A DNA stretch of 64,000 nt from an uncultured delta proteobacterium (GTDB lineage Bacteria; Desulfobacterota; Binatia; Binatales; Binataceae): positions 35,567 to 99,566 of the forward strand of contig CAVWMC010000006.1 of assembly GCA_963756005.1 (NCBI GenBank). Reading direction: 5' to 3'. A model generated the notes under the pieces. That model was given only the letters and a program-made list of their open reading frames with translations. It was not told the origin of the DNA and made no database searches. The position numbers were made by a program, and so were the translations under genes. Positions 1,608-47,379 of the stretch are shown one piece after another. The first letter of the stretch is position 1. The number at the start of each line of letters is the position of its first letter.

Positions 1608-1624
1608 GGCCGCTCTCCTGCACC

Positions 1625-2404
1625 CTAGTAATTCGGGTCGCCCGCGAGGATCGCAACCATGCCCCGACAGGTTGGAAAATCGTAGTGCAGGTCGCTCATG
1701 CAGAGCTTCCACGCGGACGGGGCGTCGTGCTTGCCGATAAGCGCGAGCAACTGCGACTTGGTGGGGTCCTTGAGCTGCGCCACGGCGGCCTTCGCATGTT
1801 CGTGACCCAGCTCCTTATATTTCTGCAGCTTGGCGAACCGAACCATCCCTTCGGCGGTCGGACATGGTTGGGACTCGTACCATTGACCGCCTTCCTGGCC
1901 GATTGGGAGGTTGACCGTGTCCTGATTGCCGTCCGGCGTGTTGAAATCCATGCTCATCAGATGAGTCGGCTTCATCGGGTAGGTCGCGTATTTTGTCGGG
2001 TTCATTATGTTTGTCGGCAGGGCGGTAACCTTCAGCTTGAATTTCTGGTTAATCGGGAGAGCGAACAGCCGCTTTATCCGGTCCTGCAGAAAATCCTCGT
2101 TCTTGCCGATGCACTTTAAGGTCGAAGGCGCGATCAGCTGCTTCATCGCGGCGAAGTCTTTCGAGTCCATCGCGTCGGCGACCTTGCGCGCGAAGGCCTG
2201 CTGCTCCGGCGTTCCTTTCTCGGCTTTCTTTATCGCGGCCACCTCTTTGGCTGACAGGGTCGGAGCGCCGTGCGGAGCGGCGTCCGGCGCGCGCATCGCC
2301 CACGGCGACTCCTGCGGCTTGGCAGACTCCTGCGGATAGGCAGGCGCGACGAGCGCGGCGGTCGTGACGATCAATACAAGTATGGTTGTCAGGGACTTCA
2401 GCAT
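1625..2404 (-). CDS. Secreted hypothetical protein (signal peptide)
   Basis: The internal Met gives MLKSLTTILVLIVTTAALVAPAYPQESAKP, a classical Sec signal peptide. I recognise no conserved domain. Start taken at M31 of the track ORF. Confidence 0.55.
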   Translation of the reverse strand: MLKSLTTILVLIVTTAALVAPAYPQESAKPQESPWAMRAPDAAPHGAPTLSAKEVAAIKKAEKGTPEQQAFARKVADAMDSKDFAAMKQLIAPSTLKCIGKNEDFLQDRIKRLFALPINQKFKLKVTALPTNIMNPTKYATYPMKPTHLMSMDFNTPDGNQDTVNLPIGQEGGQWYESQPCPTAEGMVRFAKLQKYKELGHEHAKAAVAQLKDPTKSQLLALIGKHDAPSAWKLCMSDLHYDFPTCRGMVAILAGDPNY

Positions 2405-2454
2405 TCTCACTCCTTGAGTGCGGGCACACGCCGAGAAAATTTCACGATGCGAGA

Positions 2455-5462: not shown

Positions 5463-5741
5463 AGGCGTCAATCCCCCGAGCGCGCCCTGGCGGGGAGTTT
5501 CTGCGATGAGCGGAGCCCCCGCCAGGAAAATTAAGCGCGAAGTGGGGAATTAGAAAAGTTCCTGCACCGAGTCCCACGCCCGCCGGTGCGCTCCCAAAGG
5601 GGGGCGCGCATCGGCGGGCGTTCCTTTTTGCGCGCGCGAAAACACCCTCGCATTCCTTGTCCGGCGTGTCGATCACTGCAATAAGAGGGGAGCGACCCGG
5701 CTCCCGCGCCGGATCGAAATGCCGTCGAAGGAGGACTCGCG

Positions 5742-6350
5742 ATGCCAGCCAGCTCAGCCGAGAACGGAAACGGAACCAGGCGCGTCGTACCCGCGAAATT
5801 TGCGCACGCCGTGCTCGCCACCAAGCAATTCCAGCCGATGGTCGATTGGTACACGACCGTGTTGCAGGCCGAGGTCGTTCACAGCAACGGCATGCTCGCG
5901 TTCATGACCTACGACGACGAGCATCACCGGATTGCGATCGCGGCGGTGCCCGGGCTTGAAGACAAGCCGCGGCATTCGGTCGGGCTCGATCATTTGGCAT
6001 ACACCTACGCCAATCTCGGCGACCTGGTTTTCACTTACGAGCGCCTCAAGCAGGCCGGGATCATGCCGGTGGTGACTATCAATCACGGGCCGACGACCTC
6101 GATGTACTATCGCGACCCCGACGGCAACCGGGTCGAGCTGCAAGTCGACAATTTCGATACGGTCGAGGAGCTGAAGGGATTTTTCCAGAGCGACGCGATG
6201 CAGAAGAATCCGATTGGCGTGAGCTTCAACCCCGACGAGCTGGCGCGCGAGTATCACGCCGGCGTGCCCGAGTCGGAGCTCAAGAAATACGACGCGACGC
6301 GGGGACTCGATCCGGCGACGATGCGGCGGTTGATGGGCGCGAATCAGTAG
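5742..6350 (+). CDS. VOC-family protein (glyoxalase / extradiol dioxygenase fold)
   Basis: 202 aa: AHAVLATKQF...HHRIAIAA...GLDHLAYTY...VELQVD resembles paired beta-alpha-beta-beta-beta VOC modules. A GGAGG SD lies 7 nt upstream. Confidence 0.75.
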   Translation: MPASSAENGNGTRRVVPAKFAHAVLATKQFQPMVDWYTTVLQAEVVHSNGMLAFMTYDDEHHRIAIAAVPGLEDKPRHSVGLDHLAYTYANLGDLVFTYERLKQAGIMPVVTINHGPTTSMYYRDPDGNRVELQVDNFDTVEELKGFFQSDAMQKNPIGVSFNPDELAREYHAGVPESELKKYDATRGLDPATMRRLMGANQ

Positions 6351-6395
6351 TTTGAAAATAATTTTGACGGCACGAAGCGGAGCGGCTGGAGTCGA

Positions 6396-7271
6396 ATGAA
6401 ACTTGCGACCTTCACCCATGGCGACGCGACGCGGATTGGCGTCGTGGTCGAGGACTCAATCGTTGACCTCGCGGCGGCGGCGTCAGAACTGCCGCGCGAG
6501 ATGATCGCGTTTCTAATCGCGGGACCGCATGCGATCGAGCGCGCCGCCGCGGCGGCGAAGAATCCAGCGCATCGAATCGCGCTCAAGAGCGTCAAGCTCG
6601 AGGCGCCGATTGCGCGGCCGCCGGAGTTTCTCGCGATCGGGCTCAACTACGCCGATCACGTCGAAGAGACGAAGATGAAGCGGCCCGAGTTTCCGATGTT
6701 CTTCAACAAGCAATCGAGCTGCGTCACCGGACCCGGCGATCCGATCCACCTGCCGCGCGCGTCGTCGGCACTCGATTACGAAGGCGAGCTCGGATTCGTG
6801 ATCGGGCGGCGATGCCGTCACGTGCCGCGCGGCCGCGCGCACGAGGTAATCGCCGGTTACGTGATCGTCAACGACGTGAGCGTGCGCGACTGGCAGCGGC
6901 GCGCGCCGACGATGACGCTGGGCAAGTCGTTCGACACGCACGGGCCGGTTGGGCCGTGGATCGTGACGCCGGACGAGATTGGCGATCCGCACAAACTGGA
7001 CTTGAAAACGTTCGTCAACGGCGAACAGCGCCAGCATTCCAACACCAAGAACCTGATCTTCGACTGCTTCGCGCAGATCGAGACGCTCTCGACGGTGTTC
7101 ACGCTGCTGCCGGGTACGATCGTTTCGACCGGCACGCCGGGCGGCGTCGCGGCGGCGATGAATCCGCCAAAGTGGCTGAAGGCGGGCGACGTGGTGCGAA
7201 TCGAGATCGAGAAGATCGGCCAACTCGAAAACAAAGTAATCGAGGAACCCGCCAGCACCGACTCAATCTAG
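6396..7271 (+). CDS. Fumarylacetoacetate hydrolase (FAH) family protein (2-keto-4-pentenoate hydratase / HpaG-like)
   Basis: 291 aa: MKLATF...GDATRIGVVVED, GLNYADHVEE, YEGELGFVIG and GTPGG are FAH-family motifs. Confidence 0.85.
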   Translation: MKLATFTHGDATRIGVVVEDSIVDLAAAASELPREMIAFLIAGPHAIERAAAAAKNPAHRIALKSVKLEAPIARPPEFLAIGLNYADHVEETKMKRPEFPMFFNKQSSCVTGPGDPIHLPRASSALDYEGELGFVIGRRCRHVPRGRAHEVIAGYVIVNDVSVRDWQRRAPTMTLGKSFDTHGPVGPWIVTPDEIGDPHKLDLKTFVNGEQRQHSNTKNLIFDCFAQIETLSTVFTLLPGTIVSTGTPGGVAAAMNPPKWLKAGDVVRIEIEKIGQLENKVIEEPASTDSI

Positions 7272-7925: not shown

Positions 7926-9449
7926 CTAGGGAAACCGGCCGGGTTGCGCGATGCCTGCGACTGGTGCTCCCGGCACCTTCGAGGCCGCGAAGTCTTGCCG
8001 GGCATAGAGCCTCGATGAGGCATCGTCGTAGATCAATTTCCAGTCCGTGCGCGTGTCCATCAGCTTCCGCGATTCGGAAGCCGGCTTGATCAGCACAAAA
8101 TCAGTCGGAAATTCGGACAGGACCGCGTCGCCGCCCTGCTGATTGAAATTAAACAGCGCGAACTTGTAGATGGTTTCGTACGGAAAGACCGTATCATACC
8201 GCCCGTCGATGAACACCCGCGACCCCGGCGCCATGTTCCAGATCAGATACTCGCCCCATTCGAAGGTACTCAGGATATTGCCTTGCAGCTCGTGCTGCTT
8301 CATGAACTCGCATGCGCCGGCAGGGTACGGGTCAGGCGATACCAGCGCGCGCGCGAAAAATCCGTACTGAAGGAAAATGATCGCCGATAGTGCGATCAGT
8401 ACTATCTGATTGATCCATCCCGAGCGCCGCGGCGGCGGCGGGCTTGCCTTCGCTGGCACAATCAAATGCCACGCGCGCGGGGAATGACGCGCGAGCGGCG
8501 CCGCCAACGCGATCATCGCAATCGGGAGATTCCGGGTCGAAATGAACGCCGCGATTGCCATCAGCACTGCTATCGCACACAGCGGCAGATCTACCGCCTC
8601 GATTGTCAGCGCCCACGAAATGCCGGCCATCGCCATCATCGCGATCCCGATGTCATAGTTCGAGATTAGAAACCGATGCTGCTGCCAGTGAGCGATGGCG
8701 GCGGACGCGAGCGGCTGCCATTCTTCGATCACGCTCCGCGTATATGGATTGTGCAACGCGTGCCCGACCGTCTCCCAGGTCCCGAATCCGTACGGCGTCG
8801 CGAGCGTCGCGACGATCGACGCGCCCGTGATTGCCGCGAGTCTCATCGCTCGAGCGTAGCCGCGGCCCGCCATGACATCCTGCAATCCCGACACCGCGGC
8901 ATAAGTGCCAAGCGCGGCTATCCCCATGATGAACCCGCCGTGCAGGTTCGCCCAAAGTGCAAGTATCGGAATCGCGAGCCACAAACGTCCCGCGCGTCGG
9001 AAAGCATCAGCGCTAAGCAGGTAAATGAGTACCGCCAGCAGCGCGAACGTGAATGCTTGCGGGCGGAACTGCAGTTGCGGCTTGATAACAACCGCCGACC
9101 CAATCAGTACTGCAAACTGAACCAGGGTTGAGGAGCCGGTCTCGGCGACCGCCGCTGCGAGCGCAAGAATCACGACCGTGGTGCACGCGAGTTTCAGGAG
9201 AATGAGGCCGAAGACGCCGGCATGATTGAAAATTGCCGCCATCAGCACTTCGGTGAGCCATTCGTGGTTGTTCCAGTAATGTCCCGCGGCCGAGTAGGAG
9301 TAAGGATCGTGAAGCACCAGGTGATGCAGGCTCAAGACGGCCTGACCGAAACGAACATGGCCCCACAAATCGGGATCCGGCAGGCGAATCGAATCGGCAA
9401 TCGCGATAGTGATAAGCAGGAGTCCGGGAGAATAGCGAAATAGCGACAT
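7926..9449 (-). CDS. Polytopic integral membrane protein, possibly a GT-C-type glycosyltransferase-like protein
   Basis: At least 10 predicted TM helices are followed by a C-terminal soluble domain of about 150 aa (FIDGRYDTVFPYE...). This architecture resembles PMT/ArnT-like GT-C enzymes but no diagnostic motif is secure. Start taken at M31 (MSLFRYSPGLLLITIAIA). Confidence 0.5.
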   Translation of the reverse strand: MSLFRYSPGLLLITIAIADSIRLPDPDLWGHVRFGQAVLSLHHLVLHDPYSYSAAGHYWNNHEWLTEVLMAAIFNHAGVFGLILLKLACTTVVILALAAAVAETGSSTLVQFAVLIGSAVVIKPQLQFRPQAFTFALLAVLIYLLSADAFRRAGRLWLAIPILALWANLHGGFIMGIAALGTYAAVSGLQDVMAGRGYARAMRLAAITGASIVATLATPYGFGTWETVGHALHNPYTRSVIEEWQPLASAAIAHWQQHRFLISNYDIGIAMMAMAGISWALTIEAVDLPLCAIAVLMAIAAFISTRNLPIAMIALAAPLARHSPRAWHLIVPAKASPPPPRRSGWINQIVLIALSAIIFLQYGFFARALVSPDPYPAGACEFMKQHELQGNILSTFEWGEYLIWNMAPGSRVFIDGRYDTVFPYETIYKFALFNFNQQGGDAVLSEFPTDFVLIKPASESRKLMDTRTDWKLIYDDASSRLYARQDFAASKVPGAPVAGIAQPGRFP

Positions 9450-9705: not shown

Positions 9706-10314
9706 ATGAAAATCTACGACTTCAAACTCGCGCCCAATCCGCGCCGCGTGCGCGTCTTCCTGGCGGAAAAAGGTCTCAACGTTCCGCTCGAGGAGGTCGA
9801 TATCTTCAAGGGCATCAATCGCCAGCCGGAATTCCTCAAGAAGAATTCGCTGGGCGGGATTCCGGTGCTCGAACTCGACGACGGCCGGCATCTGGCCGAA
9901 AGCGTCGCCATCTGCCGCTACTTCGAGCTGCTCCACCCGGAGCCGGCGCTGTTCGGCAAGGGCGCGTTCGAGCAGGCGACGGTCGAGATGTGGAATCGAC
10001 GGATGGAACTGGCGCTGTTCGTGCCGGTCGGGATGGTCTGGGGACATTCGCACGAGCTGACGCGCGCGCGAATCAAGCAGATTCCCGAGATGGGCGAGCA
10101 GTCGCGCAAGGTCGTCGAGCAGCGCTACGATTGGCTCGATCGCGAGCTCGAGGGCAAGAATTTTATTGCCGGCGACAAATACTCAATCGCGGATATCACC
10201 GCGATGGTCGTCATCGACTTCGCCAAGTTCAACAATATTTCGATTCAGCCGGAGCAGAAGAATCTCGCGCGATGGCATCAGGCGGTCTCGTCGCGGCCGA
10301 GCGCGACCGCATAG
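9706..10314 (+). CDS. Glutathione S-transferase
   Basis: 202 aa: MKIYDFKLAPNPRRVRVFLAEKGL...LGGIPVLELDDG is a GST N-terminal thioredoxin fold, followed by a C-terminal helical domain. Confidence 0.9.
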   Translation: MKIYDFKLAPNPRRVRVFLAEKGLNVPLEEVDIFKGINRQPEFLKKNSLGGIPVLELDDGRHLAESVAICRYFELLHPEPALFGKGAFEQATVEMWNRRMELALFVPVGMVWGHSHELTRARIKQIPEMGEQSRKVVEQRYDWLDRELEGKNFIAGDKYSIADITAMVVIDFAKFNNISIQPEQKNLARWHQAVSSRPSATA

Positions 10315-10323
10315 CCGCGATCC

Positions 10324-10824
10324 TTAGTCGGCGCGTCCGTGGATTCCGCAAGTCGGCGCGATACCCATCCGCTCGTAGTAGCGCTGGTGATATTCCTCGG
10401 CGCGGTAGAACTCGGCGGCGGGCGCTATCTGCGTGACGACCGGGCGGCCGAGCTTGCCGGATTGGTCGAGCCGTTTTTTCGATTCTTCGGCGGCTATGCG
10501 CTCATGCTCATCGGAATAAAAAACGATCGAGCGGTATTGCGTGCCGACATCGGGGCCCTGCCGGTTGAGCGTGGTCGGATCGTGAATCTGCCAAAACACG
10601 TCGAGCAGTTGCTCGAACGACACGCGCGCGGGATCGTACTCGACCTTGACGACTTCGGCGTGTCCGGTCTTGCCGCCGCAAACCGTTCGATAGCTGGGCT
10701 TCGGAACGGTGCCGCCCGCGTATCCGACGGCCACATCGACGACGCCTTCGACGGCGCGAAAGGCCGACTCGACGCCCCAGAAACATCCCGCGCCAAAAAC
10801 CGCAAGTTTGTGTGTGTTGGTCAT
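10324..10824 (-). CDS. msrA: Peptide methionine sulfoxide reductase MsrA
   Basis: GCFWGVE catalytic motif, GHAEVVKVEYDP and YHQRYY. Start at the internal Met MTNTHKLAVFGAG. Confidence 0.9.
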   Translation of the reverse strand: MTNTHKLAVFGAGCFWGVESAFRAVEGVVDVAVGYAGGTVPKPSYRTVCGGKTGHAEVVKVEYDPARVSFEQLLDVFWQIHDPTTLNRQGPDVGTQYRSIVFYSDEHERIAAEESKKRLDQSGKLGRPVVTQIAPAAEFYRAEEYHQRYYERMGIAPTCGIHGRAD

Positions 10825-10910
10825 TTGCCTACTTAACGATGACTCGATGCGCGAATCAATCCTCGGCGAGCCTGTGCGAGGCTGCGAAGCTGTGCCATTA
10901 TTCAAGCGAT

Positions 10911-11739
10911 ATGACAAGTATCATGGCATCCTATCGGCTGCGAGTAATTCTTCTCGTGGCAGTTTTTGTTTTTGCGTGGCCCGTCGGCAACGCCGGCGCC
11001 GCCGATATAAAGATCGCGGCCGCGTCGGATCTGACCTTCGCCTTCAAGGACGTAGCCGCGCGCTTCGAGCAGCAGACGGGCGCCAGCGTCAAGCTGAGTT
11101 ACGGTTCATCGGGGAATTTTTTCGCGCAGATTCAAAACGGCGCGCCGTTCGATCTTTTCTTTTCCGCCGACGTAGGCTATCCGCAGAAGCTCGAGGCCGC
11201 CGGTCTGATCGAACCCGGCACTATCTATGACTATGCGAGCGGAAAACTCGTGATATGGGTGCCCAATGCGTCCAAGCTCGATTTGAGCCGCGGTCTTGCG
11301 GTATTACTCGACCCCGAGTATCCGGAAGATCGCGATCGCCAATCCGCTCCATGCACCATACGGCGTCGCCGCGGCTGCGGCGCTGCGTCACGATGCGATC
11401 TACGACAAAGTTAAGCGCAAGCTCGTGCTCGGCGAAAATATTTCGCAGACCGCGCAGTTCGCGCAGTCGGGCAACGCCGACGTCGGGCTGCTAGCCCTTT
11501 CGCTCGCGGTTGCACCGGCGATGAAGGACAGCGGACGCTATGTCGAAATTCCGGCGGCGGACTATCCGCCGCTCATCCAGGCCGGCGCGATTCTCAAATC
11601 ATCGCACAACAAGGAACTGGCGGCTCAATTTCTCAAATTTCTCAAGCAGCCCGCAACCGTTGCGCTGATGGAACGATACGGTTTCTCGATTCCGAGCGAC
11701 GTCGCCGCGGCACAGCGTGAAATGCCCGCGCCTCACTGA
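10911..11739 (+). CDS. modA: Molybdate ABC transporter substrate-binding protein ModA, interrupted by an apparent +1 frameshift near 11313-11317 (split across two track ORFs)
   Basis: The N-terminal ORF carries a signal peptide plus ADIKIAAASDLTFAFKDVAARFEQQTGASVKLSYGSSGNFFAQIQNGAPFDLFFSAD. The downstream frame continues SIRKIAIANPLHAPYGVAAAAAL...FLKQPATVALMERYGFSI. The two join at LLDP|SIRK only if one base in the run ccccg is removed. Confidence 0.8.
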
Positions 11740-11745
11740 GCGCCG

Positions 11746-12423
11746 ATGGACTGGAGCGCGATTTTTCTGACGATCCGGCTCGCGCTGGTGGTTTGCGCGA
11801 CTCTGCTGATAGTCGGGACGCCGATCGCGTACTGGCTCAGCTTCACGCGCTGGCGATGGAAATTTTTCGTCGAGTCAATCGTCGCGCTGCCGCTGGTACT
11901 GCCGCCGACCGTGCTCGGCTTCTATGTGCTGGTGGCGATGGGCTCGCGCAGTCCCGTCGGCCGCTGGTATCAGTCTTTCACCGGCCACGGACTGCCGTTC
12001 ACATTCGAGGGCCTGGCGATCGCGTCGGTCATCTACAGCCTGCCGTTCGCCGTGCAGCCGATGGCGGCGGCGTTCGCGCAGGTCGATCGCAACCTGATCA
12101 ACGCCTCGTCGATACTCGGCGCGTCGCGGATGCGCACGTTCATGCGCATCGTACTGCCGCTTTCGATCGGCGGCGTGGTCACCAGCTTCGTCCTGAGCTT
12201 CGCGCATACGCTCGGCGAATTCGGCGTAGTGCTGATGGTCGGCGGCAACATCCCGGGCGTCACGCGCACCATCTCGATCGCGATTTACGATCAGGCGCAG
12301 GCGCTCGACTACGCCGGCGCCAACCGCCTGGCGCTGCTGCTGCTGGCGTTCTCGTTCGTCACGCTGTCGATCACCTACTCGGTCAACCGCCGGGTCTGGG
12401 CGGTCTGGCCGATGAGCCGCTAA
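11746..12423 (+). CDS. modB: Molybdate ABC transporter permease ModB
   Basis: 225 aa with 5-6 TM helices and the EAA-like loop (ASSILGASRMRTFMRIVLP). It sits between modA and modC. Confidence 0.9.
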   Translation: MDWSAIFLTIRLALVVCATLLIVGTPIAYWLSFTRWRWKFFVESIVALPLVLPPTVLGFYVLVAMGSRSPVGRWYQSFTGHGLPFTFEGLAIASVIYSLPFAVQPMAAAFAQVDRNLINASSILGASRMRTFMRIVLPLSIGGVVTSFVLSFAHTLGEFGVVLMVGGNIPGVTRTISIAIYDQAQALDYAGANRLALLLLAFSFVTLSITYSVNRRVWAVWPMSR

Positions 12424-12435
12424 TCTCCCGAGACG

Positions 12436-13542
12436 ATGGCAGCAGACAAGCGTCTATCGGTGCATATCGCGCATCGGCTCTCGAACAGCTTCGCGCTCGA
12501 AGCCGGATTCGAGGCGGCGGCCGGTTTCACGATGATCCTGGGACCGTCGGGCGGCGGCAAGACGACGCTGCTGAATTGCATCGCGGGATTCACGCGGCCC
12601 GACCGCGGCCGAATAGCTATCGGAGCGCGGCGACTGTTCGACTCGGACGAACGCATCGACCTGCCGGTGGCAGAGCGAAGATTGGGCTACGTGTTTCAGG
12701 ATCTCGCGCTGTTTCCGCATCTGACGGTCGCGCAAAACGTTCAATACGGGATCGCGAAGATGCCGGCCGGCGAGCGCCGCGCGCGGATGACGGCGATGCT
12801 CGAGTCGTTTCGAATCGCGCATCTGATCGCGCGCAAGCCGGACGAGATTTCCGGCGGCGAGCGCCAACGCGTGGCCCTCGCGCGATCGCTGGTCACGAAT
12901 CCGGCGGCGTTACTGCTCGACGAGCCGCTGACGGCGCTCGACAACGCGACCAAATCAAAAATCCTCGATGACCTGCGCGTGTGGAATGCGGCGCACGAAA
13001 TCCCGATCCTTTACGTAACCCATGCCCCCGAGGAAGCCTTCGCCCTGGGCGAGCGTGTGGTAGTCCTCGAAAACGGCCGCATCCTCGCGCAGGGAGTGCC
13101 GCAACACGTGCTGACAACGCCGCGCCACGAAACTATCGCGCAGGTGGTAGGATTCGAAAACGTCTTTGAGGCGATTGTAAAGTCGATCGCCGAAGCCCAA
13201 GGCACCATGCTATGCCAGCTCGCCGGCAGCACAACCCAGCTGGAAGTCCCACTAGGCCACGCCGAGCCGGGCGCGCGAGTAAAAATAGCAATCCGCGCCG
13301 GCGACATCATGGTTGCGTCCGCTCGCCCGCAAGGCTTAAGCGCACGCAACTCATTCGAGGGCAGAGTCCTATCAATCCGCCGCGAAGGTGTGCGGGTAGT
13401 ACTAATGATAGAAGCAGGCGCAACCTTCGAGGTCCACCTGACGCCAGGCGCCATCGATTCGCTGCAACTGGTACCCGGAAAACAGATCTGGCTGGTGATC
13501 AAGACCTACTCATGCAACTTGCTTGAGCTCCGAGCGCTGTAA
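12436..13542 (+). CDS. modC: Molybdate ABC transporter ATP-binding protein ModC with C-terminal TOBE/Mop domain
   Basis: Walker A GPSGGGKTT, signature LSGGERQRVALARSL and Walker B LLLDEP. The C-terminal roughly 120 aa is Mop-like. Confidence 0.9.
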   Translation: MAADKRLSVHIAHRLSNSFALEAGFEAAAGFTMILGPSGGGKTTLLNCIAGFTRPDRGRIAIGARRLFDSDERIDLPVAERRLGYVFQDLALFPHLTVAQNVQYGIAKMPAGERRARMTAMLESFRIAHLIARKPDEISGGERQRVALARSLVTNPAALLLDEPLTALDNATKSKILDDLRVWNAAHEIPILYVTHAPEEAFALGERVVVLENGRILAQGVPQHVLTTPRHETIAQVVGFENVFEAIVKSIAEAQGTMLCQLAGSTTQLEVPLGHAEPGARVKIAIRAGDIMVASARPQGLSARNSFEGRVLSIRREGVRVVLMIEAGATFEVHLTPGAIDSLQLVPGKQIWLVIKTYSCNLLELRAL

Positions 13543-13552
13543 CTGCCGCGAA

Positions 13553-13966
13553 TCAGAGGCAGTTGACCAGCACTATGTCGTCGTCAATCCCTTTCAGTCC
13601 AACGCTGCCGGGCAAAGGGTTTAACGTTGTGCACGAGTCCGCAACCCTGGTCGTGTCACGACACTGACAAAAGCTGGTTGTTTTGACGCATCGGTTTCTG
13701 AAACTGCCTTCGCCGCCGGCCAACGTCACCTTGCCCTTGCATCCATTGTAGATAGGGCCGGGATTTATATCGCCAGAGGTCTGCGGAGAAATCCGGTATA
13801 GCGGCTTGAAGGCCACCAGATCCGCCACCCATACCACGGGGTCACCCGACACAGTAGCCACCTTGTTGCCGGTAGGAGCCGTGGGATAGGTCCATGCTTG
13901 CGTCGCGAGATTCGAGAAGGTTGAAGGACGATAGATCCCGTAGTCGTTCTTCACAGCTATCCCCAT
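13553..13966 (-). CDS. Hypothetical protein in the low-GC islet
   Basis: ORF of the islet; Cys-containing, no recognisable domain. Start uncertain (possibly M28, MGIAVKN). Confidence 0.35.
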   Translation of the reverse strand: MGIAVKNDYGIYRPSTFSNLATQAWTYPTAPTGNKVATVSGDPVVWVADLVAFKPLYRISPQTSGDINPGPIYNGCKGKVTLAGGEGSFRNRCVKTTSFCQCRDTTRVADSCTTLNPLPGSVGLKGIDDDIVLVNCL

Positions 13967-14000
13967 GTTCGACGGCGGTACCCACGTTCCCACTCCGCGG

Positions 14001-14537
14001 TTAATGAAGAATGCCATCAGGTAGTCGCCGATTTCGGTAGTTGTCACGCCCGGCTGCCATCATTGAAGTGCCGCGCCCACTGTTGCTGGACGCCGCGTCC
14101 ACCGATGACACATTGGAAACCACGTAGGTCCTGACGTCATAGGGTAGCGTGACGAACCATCGAAACCTGTACGGCGGTTTCTCATCCGACTCGAATTTGC
14201 GATAGTAAAGCACTTGGCATAGGCCATCCGCGCGCGTTTCAGAATTCGGCACCATCGTCCATCGATAGTCGGGACTGGCCCATTTGCACGCCGTCGAACT
14301 TGCAAGAACGAGCTGGACGATGCCTACCAGACCCTGCAGCGCGGGTGGGTTTACATAGGGCTGGTGTATTTCATTTGCCAGAGCGGCAAATCCCACGGAC
14401 ACCGCGGCGCCCTTGCCCGGCCAGGTCGCGACCAACGAATCGGTTCCATTAAAGTTCGGACCGCCGATGAATTGCGCGCGCGCCGATACTGATAGCAACA
14501 AGAGAGCTATAACGGCTGCGAGTATTCGAGACTTCAC
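14001..14537 (-). CDS. Secreted hypothetical protein in the low-GC islet
   Basis: MKSRILAAVIALLLLSVSARAQ is a signal peptide. The start overlaps the upstream gene's stop by 1 nt, which suggests translational coupling. Confidence 0.5.
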   Translation of the reverse strand: MKSRILAAVIALLLLSVSARAQFIGGPNFNGTDSLVATWPGKGAAVSVGFAALANEIHQPYVNPPALQGLVGIVQLVLASSTACKWASPDYRWTMVPNSETRADGLCQVLYYRKFESDEKPPYRFRWFVTLPYDVRTYVVSNVSSVDAASSNSGRGTSMMAAGRDNYRNRRLPDGILH

Positions 14538-15433
14538 TAGTTAGCAGGAATCTCCTCGTTGTAAACGCTATTCCAGGTGGCATAGGCGGCCGCTGAATTG
14601 CCCGGATTTATATAACATGTGTAGCCGGTGAAGATGATCGTTGCCTGATCGCTGGTAGCGACCATTTGCGCGTTGAACTCGGTGCAACCTCCCGCCGGAA
14701 CCTGGACCGGAGCGGTTTGAGCTATAGCAGTGGGCCAGCCGCCGTAGCGGTTACAACGAAAGGTAGCCAGTGTCGTAGCCGAATCGTAGTTACAAAATTG
14801 GATGACGCCGGATTGGATCTGAGCATAGCTGACGACTCCGTTGCCTTCAGGTCCAAAGAATCCTCCGTTGTCGCCGAACACTCCGGTCTCGGTATTAGCC
14901 GGGAGAAAGAGCGCCTTGGCCGAACTCTCTCTGCCAGGATGGTCGCCTATGCTGGTACCCGCGCCCTGGAATACCGGCGCCAACTGTTGAACGGTGGATC
15001 GAGACAGGTAAATCCATTTATCAATAGAGCTATCGTACTGAAACAGAACATTTTCAGTCGCGTTCGGGAACGTAACCGGAACGAGCGTGTTGGGTGCGTA
15101 AGCGTATGAGCTCTGGAACTGGAAGCTCTTACTCCACTTTGGCAGATGACCACCTACGGAATCCTGCGCCAGCCGGATTGTAAAGAACTGACCCGAGTAA
15201 GCGGCAGGTCCCATCGTTATCTCCTGTTTATCAAACAGGACAACAGTTCCGATGTTTCTCCGGTCAGGCCAGCAGGTCCAGACTTTCCGCGAGAGCGTGC
15301 AGGCCGGCGACCATCGGGAAATCGCCAGCACTCCTGAATCAGGACTTCTGGGCGGACTCCAACGCTGCGAGGCGCATCCGGTGAGTGAGGCGAAAAAACA
15401 TGCGAGCAACGATGCTACTCGAAGGGTGTTCAT
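14537..15433 (-). CDS. Hypothetical lipoprotein in the low-GC islet
   Basis: The internal Met gives MNTLRVASLLACFFASLTGC, a signal peptide with an L-T-G-C lipobox. I recognise no known domain. Confidence 0.5.
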   Translation of the reverse strand: MNTLRVASLLACFFASLTGCASQRWSPPRSPDSGVLAISRWSPACTLSRKVWTCWPDRRNIGTVVLFDKQEITMGPAAYSGQFFTIRLAQDSVGGHLPKWSKSFQFQSSYAYAPNTLVPVTFPNATENVLFQYDSSIDKWIYLSRSTVQQLAPVFQGAGTSIGDHPGRESSAKALFLPANTETGVFGDNGGFFGPEGNGVVSYAQIQSGVIQFCNYDSATTLATFRCNRYGGWPTAIAQTAPVQVPAGGCTEFNAQMVATSDQATIIFTGYTCYINPGNSAAAYATWNSVYNEEIPAN

Positions 15434-15527
15434 CTGCCGGTCGTCTGCTAACCTGTTCGTCGCTACAGGCTCGCCATGTATCATGAAGCCGGTTTCGGCT
15501 GGAAGAACGCCGACGCTGGCGGGAAGT

Positions 15528-15604
15528 TGGTGCCCCCTGCGGGATTCGAACCCACGGCCCCAGGATTAGGAATCCTGTGCTCTATCCATCTGAGCTAAGG
15601 GGGC
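15528..15604 (-). tRNA. tRNA-Arg (anticodon CCT)
   Basis: The reverse complement is GCCCCCTTAGCTCAGATGGATAGAGCACAGGATTCCTAATCCTGGGGCCGTGGGTTCGAATCCCGCAGGGGGCACCA. This folds as a cloverleaf with acceptor GCCCCCT/AGGGGGC, a GCTC/GAGC D-arm, anticodon loop TTCCTAA, T-loop TTCGAAT and an encoded CCA. Confidence 0.85.
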
Positions 15605-15763
15605 GCTCGGACAAAAGTTACGCCGATGCGCGGCGCGGGCAAAGAGGACCGCGGCCGGGTGGGATTTCGCGCGGGCGCGCGCTGTTGTACAAATCATTAG
15701 ACGGACATCGATATTTAATTGAGCGCTTGGCCGATGTGTGCAGCGCGGCGGGAAAAATCAAAC

Positions 15764-17447
15764 ATGGCGGATGACAAGAATTCTCTGAGATCGAACAGTA
15801 GCGTGCTGGTTGACGGCCCCTCGCGGGCACCGGCGCGGGCGATGCTCAAGGCCGTTGGCTTTACCGACGAAGATCTCAGCAAGCCGCTGATCGCGGTCGC
15901 GCATACCTGGATTGAGATCATGCCCTGCACGGCGCATCTGCGGGACCTGGCCGAGCATGTTAAGCGCGGGATTCGCGCGGCCGGTGCGACGCCGATCGAG
16001 TTCAACACGATTGCAGTCTGTGACGGGATCTCGATGGGCACGCACGGCATGCGCGCCTCCTTGATCAGCCGCGAAGTGATCGCCGACTCGATCGAACTGA
16101 CCGTGCGCGGGCATCTGTTCGACGGCGTCGTCGCGATGTCGGGATGCGACAAAACGATTCCGGCGACAGTGATGGCGCTGCAGCGGCTCGACCTGCCGTC
16201 GCTGATGATTTACGGCGGATCGATACAGCCGGGGCGCTTCGGCGATCAGCAGGTTTCGATCCAGGACGTGTTCGAGGCGGTCGGGGCGCATTCGGCGGGC
16301 AAGATGAAGCTCGAGGATCTCAAGAAACTCGAGGACGTCGCGTGCCCCGGCGTGGGCGCATGCGGCGGGCAGTTCACCGCGAACACGATGGCGACGGCGA
16401 CCGAGCTGTCTGGGAATCTCGCCGATGGGATCGAACAGCATTCCGGCGACGGATCCGAAGAAGCCCGAAAGCGCGTTCCAGGCCGGGCGGCTGGCGGTCG
16501 ATTTGCTCAAGCGCAAACTCAAGCCGAGCCAGATAATCACCAAGAAGGCGATCGAGAACGCGATCGCGTCGGTCGCGATGACGGGCGGCTCCACCAATGC
16601 GGTGTTGCATCTGCTCGCGATCGCGCACGAGGCCGGCATCGCGCTCGATATCGATGACTTCGATCGTATCAGCTCGCGCACGCCGCTGCTCGCCGACCTC
16701 AAGCCGGGCGGACGATTCCTCGCCACCGACATGTACAAGGCGGGCGGAATTCCGCTAATCGCAAAACGCCTGAAAGAAGCCGGGATGCTCCACGAGAACG
16801 AAATGACGGTGACGGGCCGGACGATTGGCGTCGAGGCCGACGCGGCGCGCGAGACGGCCGGGCAGGAAGTCGTGCGCGCGGTGACGAAGCCGCTCAAGGA
16901 AACGGGCGGCCTGGTGATTCTCAAGGGCAACCTCGCGCCGGAAGGATGCGTGGTGAAGGTCGCGGGCCACGAGCGCATGACGCATCGCGGACCGGCGCGC
17001 GTGTTCGATTGCGAAGACGACGCGTTCAAGGCGGTGTCGGCGCAGAAGATCAAAGCGGGCGACGTCGTCGTCATTCGCTACGAAGGACCGCGCGGCGCGC
17101 CCGGGATGCCGGAGATGCTCGGCGTCACGGCGGCCCTGTCGGGACAGGGCCTTGGCGAATCGGTTGGACTGCTGACGGACGGTCGATTCTCGGGCGCGAC
17201 GCACGGCCTGATGGCCGGACACGTGGCGCCGGAAGCGGCAGTTGGCGGGCCGATCGCGGCGGTGCGCGACGGCGACGTGATCACGTTCGACATCGCCAAG
17301 CGCCGGCTCGACGTGGCGCTGAGCGACGAAGAAATCAAGACGCGGCTCAAAAGCTGGAAGGCACCGGAGCCGCACTATAAGACTGGGGTGATGGCAAAAT
17401 ACGCGCAGACGGTGTCGTCTTCATCGCGCGGCGCCGTGACAAATTGA
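15764..17447 (+). CDS. ilvD: Dihydroxy-acid dehydratase IlvD, interrupted by an apparent +1 frameshift near 16406 (split across two track ORFs)
   Basis: The N-terminal ORF: [11 protein letters not shown]...[11 protein letters not shown]...[21 protein letters not shown]. The second frame continues (L)[15 protein letters not shown]...[19 protein letters not shown]...GRFSGATHG. The join requires deleting 1 nt around gag-c-tgt. Confidence 0.85.
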
Positions 17448-21524: not shown

Positions 21525-23579
21525 CTAGTCTGGCGAAGCTTGTTGCTGAGCAGGAGCCGGGCGCGCTGTTTCAAGTAGTCGCCGGGCGGAGGCGACCGCG
21601 GCAATCGAGCCGGCTAGTTCCAGGACGTCGCCTTCGCGCAGGATTTCGTTGCCGGTCGGGACCACTACTTCGGAATTGGCGCGACCGATCGCAACCACCA
21701 CCGCGCCGCTGTTGGTGTGCAAGTCCAGGTCTGACAGTTTCTTGCCGACGCTCTCGCTATCGGCGCGCAGCGGTATCGGCGTGATTTGTCCGATGCCGGG
21801 GACTTCGTATGACCCGGCACCGACGTGAGCGCCGCCGAGCGCGAGGCGAATCAGCTGCGTGGCATTGCGAATCTGCCCCTGCATCTGGCGCGCGCTGCGG
21901 GTCACGATCACGACCAGCAGCACACTCGTGATCACAATGATTCCGATTCCTTCAACCGACGCCATGAACGGCTGAACGATCGCGAGCAGCGGCACGGCGG
22001 CGACCAGCAGAATCGTTATCTGCAGCAATTCGATAAGCGCGCTCACGGCGGGTGCGCCGCTCGGTGGAAGTTCAGCCAGTGCGCGCGATGCGAGCGCGCT
22101 CGCGAGGCGGCGCGCCGCCAAATACATCGCGGCCGCCGGCACGGCGCATAGCAGCAGCGCGAACAGATCGACGAACAGGCCGGCGTCGAAATACGAGAGA
22201 TGCTCAATGCTCGAGACGGTGGTGGTCACGTCGAATGGATCGTGTTCATTGACGATCAGAATTGCGCCAATCAGCACGGCGCTCGAGACGATGGCGGCTA
22301 TCGGCCATGCGATTGAGTTGGCGTCTTTGGCGGGCTGCCCCGCGTTGCGAATCCGCTCGAGCCACGAGTCGTAGAGCGCCTCGAGCACCTTGAGCGGTCG
22401 CGGCATCCGCGCTGAAACGAATTCGGCGAAAGGAATCGAGCCGCGAATCATGTACGGCGTCAGAAAAGTTGTGACCGCCGAGACCGCGACGGCGAGCGTG
22501 TAGAGAAAATCGCGGGCGGCGCCGGTCTTGAGCGCCGCGCCGGCGATGATGAACGAGAACTCACCGATTTGCGACAAGCTCATGCCGGCTTCGATCGAAG
22601 TTTTAGTGCCGACGCCGCTCAGGATCGAAGCGAAAGTGACGCCGATTATTTTTCCGCCGACAACCGCGGCCGTCAGCACGATCAGCGCCTGCCAATGCTG
22701 TTGAATAAGCGCGGGATCGATCATCATGCCAACCGAGACGAAGAACACGGCGCCGAATATGTCGCGCAGCGGTGCGACCAGATGCTCGATTTGCTCGGCC
22801 TCGCCGGACTCCGCGACGAGCGATCCCGCGAGGAAGGCACCGAGCGCGACTGAGTAGCCGGCGTGCTCGGCGAGCAGCGCGAAGGCGAAACAAATGCCGA
22901 CGACCGCGACCAGCGTCGTCTCCGGCCGATCCATCCGCACGATAAATCGCACGACCGGCGGCACCACGATAAAGCCGATGCCCACGAAGGCGACCAGGAA
23001 CAAGATCAGGCGCGCGATCGTCACCGTCATCAGCGACGCCGATACGTTCGCGCCCGAGGCCAGCGTGGTAAGAATCGCGAGCTCGACCACGGCCGTGAGA
23101 TCCTCGGCGAGCAGCACGCCGAACACCAGTTCGCGCAGGCGGTCGGAGACCGGCGTTTCCTGGTAGGCCTTGGCGACGATGGTCGTGCTCGAGATCGAAA
23201 GAATCGCGCCGGTGAAGATGCTCTCGAGCGGCGTCCACCCGAGCGCGCGACCGCATACGTAACCGAGCCAGATCATGAAGCCGACCTGGAGTGCAGTGAT
23301 GAAGCCCGAGGTCGGGCCGAGGCGAATCAGCTTGCGCACGCTGAACTCGAGCCCGAGCGCGAACATCAGCAGAATCACGCCAAGCTCGGACAGCGTGTGG
23401 ATGCGCTCAGGGTCGGCGAGCAGCGGAATCGGAACGTTGGGACCGACTATCATGCCCGCTATCAGATAGCCGACGACGACCGGCTGGCGGATCTTCTGGA
23501 AGATGATCGTGGTGACCGCGGCGACGCATAGCACCATCGCGAGATCTTCCAGAAACGTGTGTGAGGTGAATACGTGCAC
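21525..23579 (-). CDS. Cation:proton antiporter (CPA2 family, KefB/KefC-like) with C-terminal TrkA-C (RCK_C) domain
   Basis: 684 aa. The N-terminal roughly 400 aa holds 12-13 TM helices with Na_H_Exchanger-type segments. The C-terminal soluble domain (...VVVAIGRANSEVVVPTGNEILREGDVLELAG) is a typical TrkA-C. Confidence 0.85.
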   Translation of the reverse strand: MHVFTSHTFLEDLAMVLCVAAVTTIIFQKIRQPVVVGYLIAGMIVGPNVPIPLLADPERIHTLSELGVILLMFALGLEFSVRKLIRLGPTSGFITALQVGFMIWLGYVCGRALGWTPLESIFTGAILSISSTTIVAKAYQETPVSDRLRELVFGVLLAEDLTAVVELAILTTLASGANVSASLMTVTIARLILFLVAFVGIGFIVVPPVVRFIVRMDRPETTLVAVVGICFAFALLAEHAGYSVALGAFLAGSLVAESGEAEQIEHLVAPLRDIFGAVFFVSVGMMIDPALIQQHWQALIVLTAAVVGGKIIGVTFASILSGVGTKTSIEAGMSLSQIGEFSFIIAGAALKTGAARDFLYTLAVAVSAVTTFLTPYMIRGSIPFAEFVSARMPRPLKVLEALYDSWLERIRNAGQPAKDANSIAWPIAAIVSSAVLIGAILIVNEHDPFDVTTTVSSIEHLSYFDAGLFVDLFALLLCAVPAAAMYLAARRLASALASRALAELPPSGAPAVSALIELLQITILLVAAVPLLAIVQPFMASVEGIGIIVITSVLLVVIVTRSARQMQGQIRNATQLIRLALGGAHVGAGSYEVPGIGQITPIPLRADSESVGKKLSDLDLHTNSGAVVVAIGRANSEVVVPTGNEILREGDVLELAGSIAAVASARRLLETARPAPAQQQASPD

Positions 23580-23653
23580 AGTCGCGTCGGGGCATTCTAA
23601 CTTGATACGGAGCGCGGGCGCGAGTGTTCGAGCGATCGCGTCGAGATGGTGGG

Positions 23654-24238
23654 CTACTGCTTGAAGACCAGCGGCGGTCCGCTGACGCGCTTGGCCGTGA
23701 GGGCGACTCTCACTTCGACGCGATTGGCGATCTTGATGAACGGAATGCCGCTGTTCATCCCGTAGTCTTTGCGGTCGAAGTAGAGCGTCCCGTTAATCGT
23801 GCCTGAGCCCGTACCCTTGCCGATCACCGCGAGTGTCAGCTTCTCGGACCTGGTAACTCCGCGCAGCGTAAAGTTGCCGTCCACTTCGAAGGTGTTGGCG
23901 CCGGTCTGTACGAGTTTCGTCGACTTGAACGTGATCAACGGATTGTTGTTGACGTCGAAAAAATCTTTGCTCTTCAGCTTGCCGTTCTTCAAGCTGCTTC
24001 CCGTATCCACCGTGGCAGCCTGAATCTCGACGTCCAAAGTCCCGCTCGTCACGTCGCCCGACGTAAAAGTTAAAGTTGCGGTCCACTTGTCGAAAGTACC
24101 CTTTATCGCCACCGACGCTTCGACGTCGAACTTGATCGAGCTCTCGACTGGCGTGATCGCGAACACCGGAACCTGCTGCGCCCAGCTTAATGACGGGAGC
24201 AGCACGGACACTAAAAGGCAGAGGGCGAATGATCGCAT
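23654..24238 (-). CDS. YceI-family periplasmic protein
   Basis: Signal peptide plus the YceI-like lipid/polyisoprenoid-binding barrel pattern (SSIKFDV...GTFDKW...TLDVEI...TFKSTK). Confidence 0.8.
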   Translation of the reverse strand: MRSFALCLLVSVLLPSLSWAQQVPVFAITPVESSIKFDVEASVAIKGTFDKWTATLTFTSGDVTSGTLDVEIQAATVDTGSSLKNGKLKSKDFFDVNNNPLITFKSTKLVQTGANTFEVDGNFTLRGVTRSEKLTLAVIGKGTGSGTINGTLYFDRKDYGMNSGIPFIKIANRVEVRVALTAKRVSGPPLVFKQ

Positions 24239-24426
24239 GGCGGGCAGTGTGAGTTTTTAATGCTTCATTGTCAACTGGGAGAGGAACCTGACCGCTGTCT
24301 GACGCGAATCGATCTAATTAGGCCGCGCGAGATTCGATCGTGCGTCGCGACGCGATCGATCTTGCACTAACCGACAGCTTCCAGTACTAACCTACTCATT
24401 CGGGCTCAGTTGACTACGGGGGGACC

Positions 24427-25014
24427 GTGAAGAAACTCGCCGTCAGTATTCTTGCCGTTTGCGCTTTGCTTGGTTCTTCCTGCGCCACGATGCTGAAGGG
24501 CACGAAGGATGAGATCACCGTAGTTTCGGATCCGTCAGGCGCCGAGGTAACCGCCAACGAAACGCACGAGGGACCGACTCCTGTCTCGTTCACGGTCCCG
24601 TCGAAACAGGATCTTAACATCACGGTTTCGAAAGCGGGTTACCAGCCGGAAGATCTGCAAGATCCGACGAGCTTCCGCTGGGGCTACGAGATCTGGGCTT
24701 TCATTGCGTACGTGATTCCGATGGTCGTTGATTTGTCGGACGGTGCAGCATGGGGGCATGACCATCTGACGATGACTGCGCATCTTGAGCCGAACGGTCA
24801 GCCGACTTCCGCCGCTGCGGCAGCACCGCCAGTTGCGAGCGCGGCCTCCGAGGCCCCAGCGTCGCCTCTTGCGAGCCCGTCGCCGGCGGCACCGAGCGAC
24901 GCTATTGCGACCGGGTCTGTTCCTCCGCCTGTCGCGGCTCCATCGATTTCCGCTGCGACGCAACCTCAAGCAAATGTCCCGCCGTCATCGCCTGTCACTT
25001 CCGCACCGCAATAG
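24427..25014 (+). CDS. PEGA-domain lipoprotein with Pro/Ala/Ser-rich C-terminal tail
   Basis: MKKLAVSILAVCALLGSSC lipobox. ITVVSDPSGAEVTANE...NITVSKAGYQPED matches the PEGA pattern. The C-terminal roughly 80 aa is a low-complexity P/A/S linker. Confidence 0.55.
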   Translation: MKKLAVSILAVCALLGSSCATMLKGTKDEITVVSDPSGAEVTANETHEGPTPVSFTVPSKQDLNITVSKAGYQPEDLQDPTSFRWGYEIWAFIAYVIPMVVDLSDGAAWGHDHLTMTAHLEPNGQPTSAAAAAPPVASAASEAPASPLASPSPAAPSDAIATGSVPPPVAAPSISAATQPQANVPPSSPVTSAPQ

Positions 25015-32643: not shown

Positions 32644-32720
32644 TGGTGCGCCATGAGGGACTTGAACCCCCGACCTGATGATCCGTAGTCATCCGCTCTA
32701 ATCCACTGAGCTAATGGCGC
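32644..32720 (-). tRNA. tRNA-Arg (anticodon ACG)
   Basis: The reverse complement is GCGCCATTAGCTCAGTGGATTAGAGCGGATGACTACGGATCATCAGGTCGGGGGTTCAAGTCCCTCATGGCGCACCA. Acceptor GCGCCAT/ATGGCGC, anticodon loop CTACGGA, T-loop TTCAAGT and an encoded CCA. Confidence 0.85.
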
Positions 32721-43531: not shown

Positions 43532-43538
43532 ACATGAC

Positions 43539-47370: not shown

Positions 47371-47379
47371 TTTGACTAC

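Follow-up and report, generated by a model that had tools for sequence, protein, structure and literature searches.

A low-GC two-gene cassette for exported proteins, probably of phage origin, at a tRNA-Arg(CCT) insertion hotspot of Candidatus Binatus

An islet of low-GC DNA lying against the 3' end of a tRNA-Arg(CCT) gene raises the questions of whether it is foreign DNA, when it reached this site and what the proteins it encodes might do. The host is a soil bacterium of the genus Candidatus Binatus (phylum Binatota), a lineage that is uncultured (PMC8262859). We analyzed base composition along the window (the whole 64-kb stretch of DNA under study), and the islet (window positions 13543-15527) was found to have a GC content of 55.8%, the mean of the window being 62.6%. 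The lowest-GC 1-kb segment of the 64 kb (54.8%, about 2.9 sd under the mean) falls inside it, and the tetranucleotide distance of positions 13501-15500 is the strongest outlier of the stretch (z = 5.9), so that windowed GC and tetranucleotide profile are both deviant. GC3 of the islet genes is 0.60-0.67 (gene mean 0.77, sd 0.06), and their GC1 is also low (0.50-0.59), which indicates that protein composition contributes to the low GC. The earlier note had rightly described a low-GC islet but overstated the contrast by placing the rest of the DNA at about 67% GC: modC has 62.1% and the intact part of ilvD 65.5%, and the real offset is ~7 points, not 11-15. Its placement directly 3' of the tRNA, at a distance given as about 95 bp, was accurate, as the start of the first islet gene (position 15433) is 94 nt from the tRNA 3' end. 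At the opposite edge, the junction between modC and the islet (Table 1) is equally tight (0-22 bp) in the related loci L003, L007 and L009.

Table 1. Features of the islet and its borders (window coordinates).
Feature	Position	Strand	Details
tRNA-Arg(CCT)	15528-15604	-	ARAGORN; Rfam tRNA model, 69 bits; 3' end (15528) faces the islet
Conserved 43-nt block TTCTTCCAGCCGAAACCGGCTTCATGATACATGGCGAGCCTGT	15465-15507	-	Upstream of A; alternative in-frame ATG at 15484
Gene A	14537-15433	-	298-aa lipoprotein; ORF and sequence
Gene BC	13553-14537	-	327-aa Sec-secreted protein; reads here as ORFs 14001-14537 and 13553-14047
Private 1-nt insertion, extra C in GCCGGGCGTG	14048	-	Frameshifts BC
Right-hand junction	13543-13552		10 bp between the convergent stops of modC and BC
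modC	12436-13542	+	Stop converges on the BC stop

The islet had been read as an operon of three genes. Our analysis identified only two, since the ORFs at 14001-14537 and 13553-13966 belong to one gene (BC) that is split in this assembly by an extra C at position 14048. This base is missing both in the closely related loci L003 and L004, which are ~94% identical overall, and in the contigs L096-L098 of the same species (97.7-98.9% identity), its removal restores a 327-aa product that is 94% identical to those of L003 and L004, and an intact BC of this length is called on some of these related contigs; a separate third gene was therefore rejected. The contigs of these relatives belong to the metagenome assemblies in ENA from which the MFD (Microflora Danica) MAGs were obtained, a Nanopore project (PMC12313526). 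Further private 1-nt insertions were found in ilvD (~16408) and modA (~11316) of the window, and each related assembly has a different set of private indels. Because comparable private indels also break ilvD and modA, the insertion at 14048 is probably a long-read sequencing or assembly error. In practical terms, single-base indels inflate gene counts in such long-read MAGs, ilvD, modA and BC all being split here.

Both genes encode exported proteins, in agreement with the lipoprotein and Sec signals reported earlier for two of the genes. Protein A carries the lipobox LTG|C (signal MNTLRVASLLACFFASLTG|C), whose cysteine is invariant in 47 homologues; six further cysteines (C45, C54, C214, C227, C250 and C273) are also invariant, and the protein has a strongly conserved C-terminal motif (INPGNSxAAYATWNSVYNEEIP). 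BC has a Sec signal peptide (...SVSARA|QFIGG), followed in profile searches by a β-sandwich domain (~200 aa) and, at the C terminus, a swappable Cys-rich domain (~65 aa). The A stop codon (TAG, 14539-14537) and the BC start codon (GTG, 14537-14535) share one base, the overlap already recorded at 14537, and the two genes are translationally coupled. Six islets share the 43-nt block upstream of A almost without change, their A proteins having only ~60-65% identity, and the block is a candidate promoter or operator. A scan for the sigma-70 consensus gave no promoter for the islet, no terminator-like site was detected in the scan 3' of BC, and the tRNA was the sole Rfam match, with nothing at the 43-nt block.

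As had been stated, neither protein has a recognizable domain: searches of A and BC against Pfam, NCBIfam, PHROGs and PADLOC gave nothing above noise, sequence-profile searches of the PDB gave no meaningful match, and a scan of IMG/VR with both alignments gave no match. Two A homologues carry a precomputed PF26209 (Phage_phiTE_241_C) tag, but this was 'faint' and could not be reproduced. Homologues of A form 68 clusters (44-98% identity), none of which has a firm Pfam domain, and those of BC form 78; the full-length family is very narrow, with ~10 clusters at 50% identity and E < 1e-30. A and BC are not paralogues (hhalign probability 2%). AlphaFold models of both proteins are all-β, with two domains in A (pLDDT 70.7, pTM 0.46; for BC, P0069, pLDDT 78.5, pTM 0.76). 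In structural comparisons they are most similar to the C-terminal domains of fibres and tailspikes (7eea, 24qj and the R2 pyocin fibre), and Foldseek searches of BFVD, a set of predicted viral structures, found phage fibre, C1q-like and collagen-like proteins with E down to 4e-8. The Z and TM scores are low, so the likeness to fibres may reflect a generic β-sandwich resemblance. The first domain of BC is also found alongside DUF6701, Big or DUF11 domains in large surface proteins.

To place the islet in its genomic context, we compared the same locus in related genomes. The tRNA adjoins the islet in L003-L007, L009, L011-L013, L016, L023, L026 and L028; the order ilvD - tRNA-Arg(CCT) - A - BC - modCBA is found in L003/4, L005, L007, L009, L012 and L013, and L006 and L023 keep the islet synteny but have no modC. 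The pair thus occupies this site in at least eight other Binatus species, and GC and GC3 are offset to a similar degree in all of them. Since the flanking genes of islet-bearing species differ by dS of ~0.4-1.0, the acquisition is of old date, and the genes keep a stably low GC. Both genes are, moreover, under purifying selection (dN/dS ~0.1-0.2), which implies long-term maintenance of the pair.

These data bear directly on the literal form of the first reading, namely that the DNA was acquired recently in this genome and its GC has not yet ameliorated. The deviant composition, the position at a tRNA 3' end and the hypothetical secreted products would fit such an event, but orthologous islets with the same junctions and offset occur both in L003/L004 (~94% DNA identity) and in the species separated by the flank dS given above, and the low dN/dS speaks for long residence. 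The conserved synteny and offset in relatives refute a recent acquisition, which we regard as extremely improbable.

The earlier note had named the presence of the genes at this locus in all relatives, with a similar GC offset, as a sign of ancestral DNA. That pattern holds for only part of the genus: in other Binatus genomes the site either is empty, as in L074 with 49 bp between the modC stop and the 3' end of the tRNA, or holds different cargo (L025, L020 and L082, the last with a TIR protein). TIR and STAND defence-like genes occupy the hotspot in other species, and P4-type tyrosine integrases lie beside this tRNA only in the more distant Binataceae L079 and L041, neither of which has the pair. 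In Binataceae, a variable insertion hotspot is anchored at tRNA-Arg(CCT). The proposal of horizontal acquisition thus stands insofar as the islet is accessory, mobile DNA at a tRNA-linked hotspot, but not as regards its freshness.

As the earlier note had observed, the window contains neither an integrase nor a direct repeat of the tRNA 3' end. No integrase was present in its Pfam annotation or in those of L003-L013, L016, L023, L026 and L028. The last 45 nt of the tRNA with 10 nt of downstream flank found no repeat in positions 10000-15517 (from 14 nt with 1 mismatch to 20 nt with 3), and the last 50 nt of the tRNA found no att-like repeat in 15 related loci (13-22 nt, 0-3 mismatches). Other phage genes are likewise absent from the window and from every islet-bearing Binatus locus, so that site-specific integration is inferred rather than seen.

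Homologues of the pair are also encoded at other locations, with the gene order the same and the stop/start overlap usually kept. In L001 the pair lies beside tmRNA and smpB, ~800 bp beyond the tmRNA, and the ilvD/tRNA-Arg locus of the same genome (L038) is without it; in L090 it lies beside Peptidase_M78 and HTH genes (an ImmA/XRE module). In addition, the pair was found on three types of phage-like contig (39-58% GC), short or partial, beside baseplate, head-protease and nuclease genes. The first (L092/93, 39% GC; A 52% and BC 46% identical) encodes a head-maturation protease (phrog_94, 5e-47), an exonuclease (phrog_284, 1e-44), a methyltransferase (phrog_363) and ThyX. The second (L094, 44.7% GC; A 50%, BC 44%) encodes baseplate wedge proteins (phrog_219/6) and Tail_P2_I, and its pair lies three genes downstream of the baseplate wedge genes; the A homologue of this contig has 465 aa, no signal peptide and a long N-terminal extension like that of a fibre protein. 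The third, a 14-kb contig with Endonuclease_7 and NT5C genes, encodes a BC homologue (P0145) and an adjoining 309-aa protein that matches A in the shorter relative L095. The phage-like contigs belong to Logan SRR28211909 (48-53 kb), SRR29078124 and ENA ERZ1426723 (14 kb). Most homologues, including those on phage-like contigs, have signal peptides, which argues against a role in the virion. Proteins or DNA of L092 and L094 had no match in INPHARED (GenBank phage genomes; tblastn or blastn), nor did the phage-like contigs have one in IMG/VR. A larger shared module around the pair was also considered and rejected, as the Binatus, L090 and phage-like contexts share nothing but A and BC. A and BC define two undescribed families of exported proteins with phage links.

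Could the islet nonetheless be ancestral core DNA, its low GC being due only to the amino acids and the weakly biased codons of secreted proteins that are poorly expressed, and its absences to simple deletion? Such an origin would account for the same site, tight junctions and GC/GC3 offset in at least eight species, for the purifying selection on the pair, for the lack of integrase and att repeat and for the low GC1. It would also agree with the confinement of the islet-bearing species to one ilvD subclade, in a single-gene neighbour-joining tree without support values. The pair is, however, found in places as unlike as the tmRNA locus of L001, the ImmA/XRE module of L090 and phage-like contigs of 39-45% GC with tail and baseplate genes, and the site itself is a demonstrated hotspot for integrases, a TIR protein and other cargo. 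The A/BC tree also disagrees with that of the flanking genes, as the allele of the window and L004 is deepest and the ilvD outgroup L001/38 is nested inside, and A and BC have a dS 2-3 times as high as the flanks, an excess that could in part stem from weaker codon bias rather than allele exchange. Finally, a tetranucleotide z of 5.9 exceeds an effect of GC3. We therefore consider an ancestral origin unlikely.

Our preferred reading, which we hold to be probable, is that the islet is a self-contained two-gene accessory cassette, probably phage-derived, in the variable site between tRNA-Arg(CCT) and modC. A phage or integrative element would have brought the pair to the tRNA hotspot in the ancestor of one Binatus subclade. 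The remainder of this element would then have decayed, which would explain why neither integrase nor att repeat is left, and the pair may have been retained because it benefits the host. Recombination through the conserved flanks may later have exchanged alleles or removed them. The transfer could also have run the other way, with phages acquiring the pair from bacteria.

With regard to function, sequence and models tentatively suggest that A and BC are exported, disulfide-bonded binding modules of β-sandwich or jelly-roll type, A being anchored to lipid and BC soluble. The two proteins may act jointly at the envelope in the manner of lysogenic-conversion genes (morons), the most plausible task being to mask or bind a phage receptor, a polysaccharide or another structure of the cell surface. 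It appears quite unlikely that A and BC are an adhesin or lectin pair of the host that has no link to phage biology, serves attachment or binding to environmental polysaccharide and was merely borrowed by phages: the full-length family is very narrow, several of its few members outside Binatus lie among phage-type genes, and the A homologue of L094 combines the lack of a signal peptide with a fibre-like extension. More specifically, the pair could be a receptor-masking (superinfection-exclusion) module built from fibre-tip-like domains and domesticated by Binatus for defence, a reading that we rate as very unlikely. In that case, a receptor-binding fold of a phage would have gained a lipoprotein or Sec signal and so come to bind, on the host side, the receptor used by that phage, and Binatus would have domesticated it as a stand-alone defence pair at a hotspot that carries TIR and STAND genes in other species.

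An old and probably phage-derived remnant, kept by selection at an insertion hotspot of a known kind, the islet is fairly ordinary and opens no long-standing question. Its interest is that it neatly illustrates, for an uncultured phylum of soil bacteria, a tRNA-linked hotspot in which a phage-borne gene pair seems to have outlived its vehicle and been kept under selection across several speciations, and that it adds two families that may include surface-masking or adhesion factors.

Among known systems, two-component spanins (Rz/Rz1) consist of a small membrane-anchored coiled-coil i-spanin and a small outer-membrane lipoprotein o-spanin, encoded in a lysis cassette. This identity was rejected, as A and BC are all-β proteins of ~300 aa with the lipoprotein gene first, and their phage-like neighbours are tail and baseplate genes, with no lysis genes identified. 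The islet resembles tRNA-linked P4-type islands in abutting a tRNA 3' end, in its deviant GC, GC3 and tetranucleotide composition, in its presence/absence pattern with alternative cargo in relatives and in the P4-type integrases that L079 and L041 carry at this tRNA. It differs in its size of only ~2 kb, in the lack of an integrase, att repeat or mobility gene at islet-bearing Binatus loci, and in having been fixed at the site through several speciations rather than recently inserted.

Phage morons for envelope proteins lie in or after the tail-fibre region, as do lom and bor of lambda, llp of T5 and cor of phi80 and N15. The A-BC pair is likewise a small, compositionally distinct module for a lipoprotein and another exported protein, follows baseplate and tail genes in L094 and is kept in bacterial chromosomes without the rest of a phage. 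A difference is that A and BC resemble no PHROG or Pfam family in sequence or profile, and hence none of the Lom, Bor, Llp or Cor proteins; Llp, Cor and Bor are also far smaller than the 298 and 327 aa of A and BC. The invariant lipobox cysteine of A and the position of the L094 pair recall superinfection exclusion by Llp and Cor, although position and signal do not prove function. A structural parallel exists with the tip domains of phage fibres and tailspikes (C1q/TNF-like domains and jelly-roll knobs), which A and BC match as all-β proteins and which BC further resembles in its swappable C-terminal domain.

The compositional anomaly of the islet adjoining tRNA-Arg(CCT) is real and significant. 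Its GC content is 55.8%, against a window mean of 62.6% (1-kb windows, sd 2.6%), the 1-kb GC minimum of all 64 kb (54.8%) falls inside it, and the 2-kb stretch 13501-15500 has a tetranucleotide deviation (z = 5.9) far above all others (next unrelated region, z = 1.6). The deviant GC described in the earlier note is thus upheld, but its figure of 67% for the surroundings was too high. Genes of the islet have a GC3 of 0.60-0.67 and a GC1 of 0.50-0.59; GC3 averages 0.77 (sd 0.06) across 59 window ORFs picked as likely genes. Other 1-kb windows with mildly low GC (23501-24500, 43501-44500 and 47001-48000; 56.5-58.6%) have tetranucleotide z values of at most 1.4. The last islet ORF and modC converge, with stops at 13553 and 13542 and a gap of 10 bp.

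ORFs of the islet and tRNA genes of the window
Feature	Position	Strand	Remark
tRNA-Arg(CCT)	15528-15604	minus	ARAGORN and Rfam
First islet ORF	14537-15433/15484	minus	downstream of tRNA 3' end
Second islet ORF	14001-14537	minus	downstream of tRNA 3' end
Third islet ORF	13553-14047	minus	downstream of tRNA 3' end
tRNA-Arg(ACG), second tRNA gene	32644-32720	minus	

The islet carries two genes instead of the three reported earlier: gene A (the first ORF, for a 298-aa lipoprotein), whose TAG stop shares base 14537 with the GTG start of the second ORF, and gene BC, for a 327-aa Sec-secreted protein, which comprises the second and third ORFs and is split by an extra C at 14048. In two related loci whose overall identity to the window is about 94% (L003 and L004), one 327-aa gene is called here; their alignment exposes the surplus C, and its deletion yields a 327-aa protein 94% identical to their products. 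The base is also absent from all three conspecific contigs (L096-L098; 97.7-98.9% DNA identity), whose A protein is identical to that of the window over the 225 residues looked up. These contigs carry private indels that differ from one to the next (BC is intact at 327 aa and ilvD split in L097; ilvD is intact and BC broken in L096), and in the window private 1-nt insertions split ilvD at ~16408 (ORFs 15719-16657 and 16425-17447) and shorten or split modA at ~11316. The related assemblies are MAGs of MFD (Microflora Danica), a Nanopore project (PMC12313526). Judged from these alignments, the split at 14048 is most likely an assembly error, and the differing private indels point to errors of long-read assembly, by which gene counts become inflated.

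In an ilvD-anchored scan of species-representative genomes the relatives proved to be Candidatus Binatus and Binataceae (for the phylum, see PMC8262859), and all fetched loci were compared by tblastn, ARAGORN and gene tables. The order ilvD - tRNA-Arg(CCT) - A - BC - modCBA was found in L003/L004, L005 (= L011), L012, L013, L009 (= L016) and L007 (= L028); L006 (= L026) and L023 have the islet arrangement with modC missing. Identity to the window in islet-bearing loci is 95-98% for ilvD and 83-85% for ModC, but only 59-69% for A and BC. In every such locus the islet is lower in GC (53-57%) and GC3 (0.50-0.64) than the locus (58-62% GC) and ilvD (GC3 0.74-0.83), and the offset is therefore a stable feature across speciation. 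The observation that the earlier note named as refuting its reading, the same genes here in all relatives with a similar offset, is half borne out: the offset is shared across species, but other relatives lack the islet.

Despite conserved synteny, the A-BC cassette is accessory and mobile. The site is empty in L074, with 49 bp between the tRNA 3' end and the modC stop, and holds other cargo in L025 (a 200-aa ORF at 8050-8652 with a lipoprotein-type signal, a pro-kumamolisin activation domain and GC3 0.57), L082 (a TIR-domain protein, 5786-7051) and L020 (unrelated genes), while in L012 (8069-8712), L023 and L019 an ArsR-like regulator and a 109-aa ORF are inserted between the tRNA and A. In the genome represented by L001/L038, the ilvD/tRNA-Arg locus is without the pair, which lies instead just past tmRNA and smpB; in L090 it adjoins a Peptidase_M78 and HTH pair and lies 3.3 kb from a tRNA cluster. 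Two loci with ilvD at 79-81% carry a P4-type tyrosine integrase directly at the 3' end of tRNA-Arg(CCT) (L041, 384-1787; L079, where an nSTAND-NTPase protein follows some kb away, at 855-3086 and 5644-6864), so that for the family this tRNA is a true site of integration. Together, the TIR, nSTAND and integrase cargo suggests a defence-type variable hotspot. As in the first reading, a search for an att-like repeat of the tRNA 3' end was negative, in the window and in 15 related loci.

Islet-bearing species fall in one subclade of the single-gene ilvD tree, with islet-less species interspersed. A and BC have a between-species dS two to three times as high as adjacent modC and ilvD, and their trees conflict with that of ilvD: the window/L004 allele is deepest, the ilvD outgroup L001/L038 is nested inside, and L011 is nearest L004 by its flanks and nearest L013 by gene A. 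Both observations fit allele replacement via conserved flanks; the excess in dS may also owe something to weaker codon bias. With dN/dS at ~0.1-0.2, both genes are functional.

Protein A begins with MNTLRVASLLACFFASLTG followed by the lipobox Cys, which is invariant together with six more cysteines in 47 homologues; its C-terminal end, NPGNSxAAYATWNSVYNEEIP, is nearly invariant in the homologue alignment. BC opens with a Sec-type signal ending in ARA before QFIGG, has invariant residues Q22, F23, G25 and G26, and is Cys-rich in its last 65 residues. AlphaFold models of both are all-β (A, pLDDT 70.7, pTM 0.46; BC, pLDDT 78.5, pTM 0.76). Neither had a match in Pfam, NCBIfam, PHROGs, PADLOC or PDB sequences, and a search for paralogy between them detected no mutual relationship. 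The full-length BC family is narrow (in a profile search, ~10 clusters with E < 1e-30 when clustered at 50% identity), and its first domain also occurs alongside DUF6701, Big_1/Big_3_5, DUF11 or pectate-lyase-like domains in large surface proteins. The Cys-rich C-terminal domain (~65 aa; residues ~253-327, window 13553-13780) is found again at the very C-terminal end of unrelated proteins (~240-1100 aa, many 700-1100 aa); since other domains stand in its place in the L090, L092 and L094 homologues, it is a shuffled terminal module. Upstream of A, a 43-nt block (15465-15507, minus strand) is almost invariant among islets whose proteins are only ~60-65% identical. It includes an in-frame ATG at 15484 as an alternative start and a short stretch resembling a hairpin, AGCCG-AAAC-CGGCT, gave no match to Rfam or the sigma-70 consensus, and may be a regulatory element.

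Three phage-like settings also have A and BC side by side, in unchanged order and with the stop/start overlap. First, a 48-kb Logan contig (L092/L093; 39% GC) encodes homologues of A (502 aa; 52% identity over 267 aa) and BC (586 aa; 46% over 242 aa) beside a head-maturation protease (phrog_94, 5e-47) and an exonuclease (phrog_284, 1e-44), with a DNA methyltransferase (phrog_363), ThyX and runs of small ORFans nearby. Four successive genes of L092 (8001-14260; 502, 586, 319 and 675 aa) each have a Sec-type signal peptide, an unusual cluster of exported proteins for the neighbourhood of phage genes for replication and the head. Second, in L094 (44.7% GC) the pair comes three genes after those for the baseplate wedge (phrog_219/6) and Tail_P2_I; its A homologue (465 aa) has a 210-aa N-terminal extension and no signal peptide, and its BC homologue has 370 aa. 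Third, on a 14-kb ENA contig the BC homologue P0145 adjoins a 309-aa gene, along with Endonuclease_7, NT5C and numerous small ORFs; both genes recur in L095, a shorter relative of this contig (57.8% GC), where they match A (44%) and BC (47%). The pair is all that the contexts compared have in common, and no relatives were found in IMG/VR or INPHARED (GenBank phage genomes). Since most phage-context copies retain export signals, the pair looks like a moron-style accessory module for the envelope, borne among the tail-fibre genes, rather than a component of the virion; given that the L094 protein has no signal, the A domain may also serve as a fibre tip.

In the best-supported account, a phage or integrative element would have brought the cassette into an ancestor of a single Binatus subclade, at the tRNA-Arg(CCT) hotspot; this vehicle would then have decayed, and the pair would have been retained by purifying selection and since lost, replaced or exchanged between lineages. 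Horizontal acquisition at the tRNA, as first proposed, was right in kind but not in recency, the same pair with the same offset being present in at least 8 other Binatus species. We conclude that A and BC are exported, disulfide-bonded binding-type modules; more specifically, we infer envelope-located β-sandwich binding proteins, for which we favour a putative role in surface masking or superinfection exclusion, with adhesion as the alternative. The islet itself is of an already known kind, a tRNA-linked islet that is probably a phage remnant, and it has two undescribed protein families.
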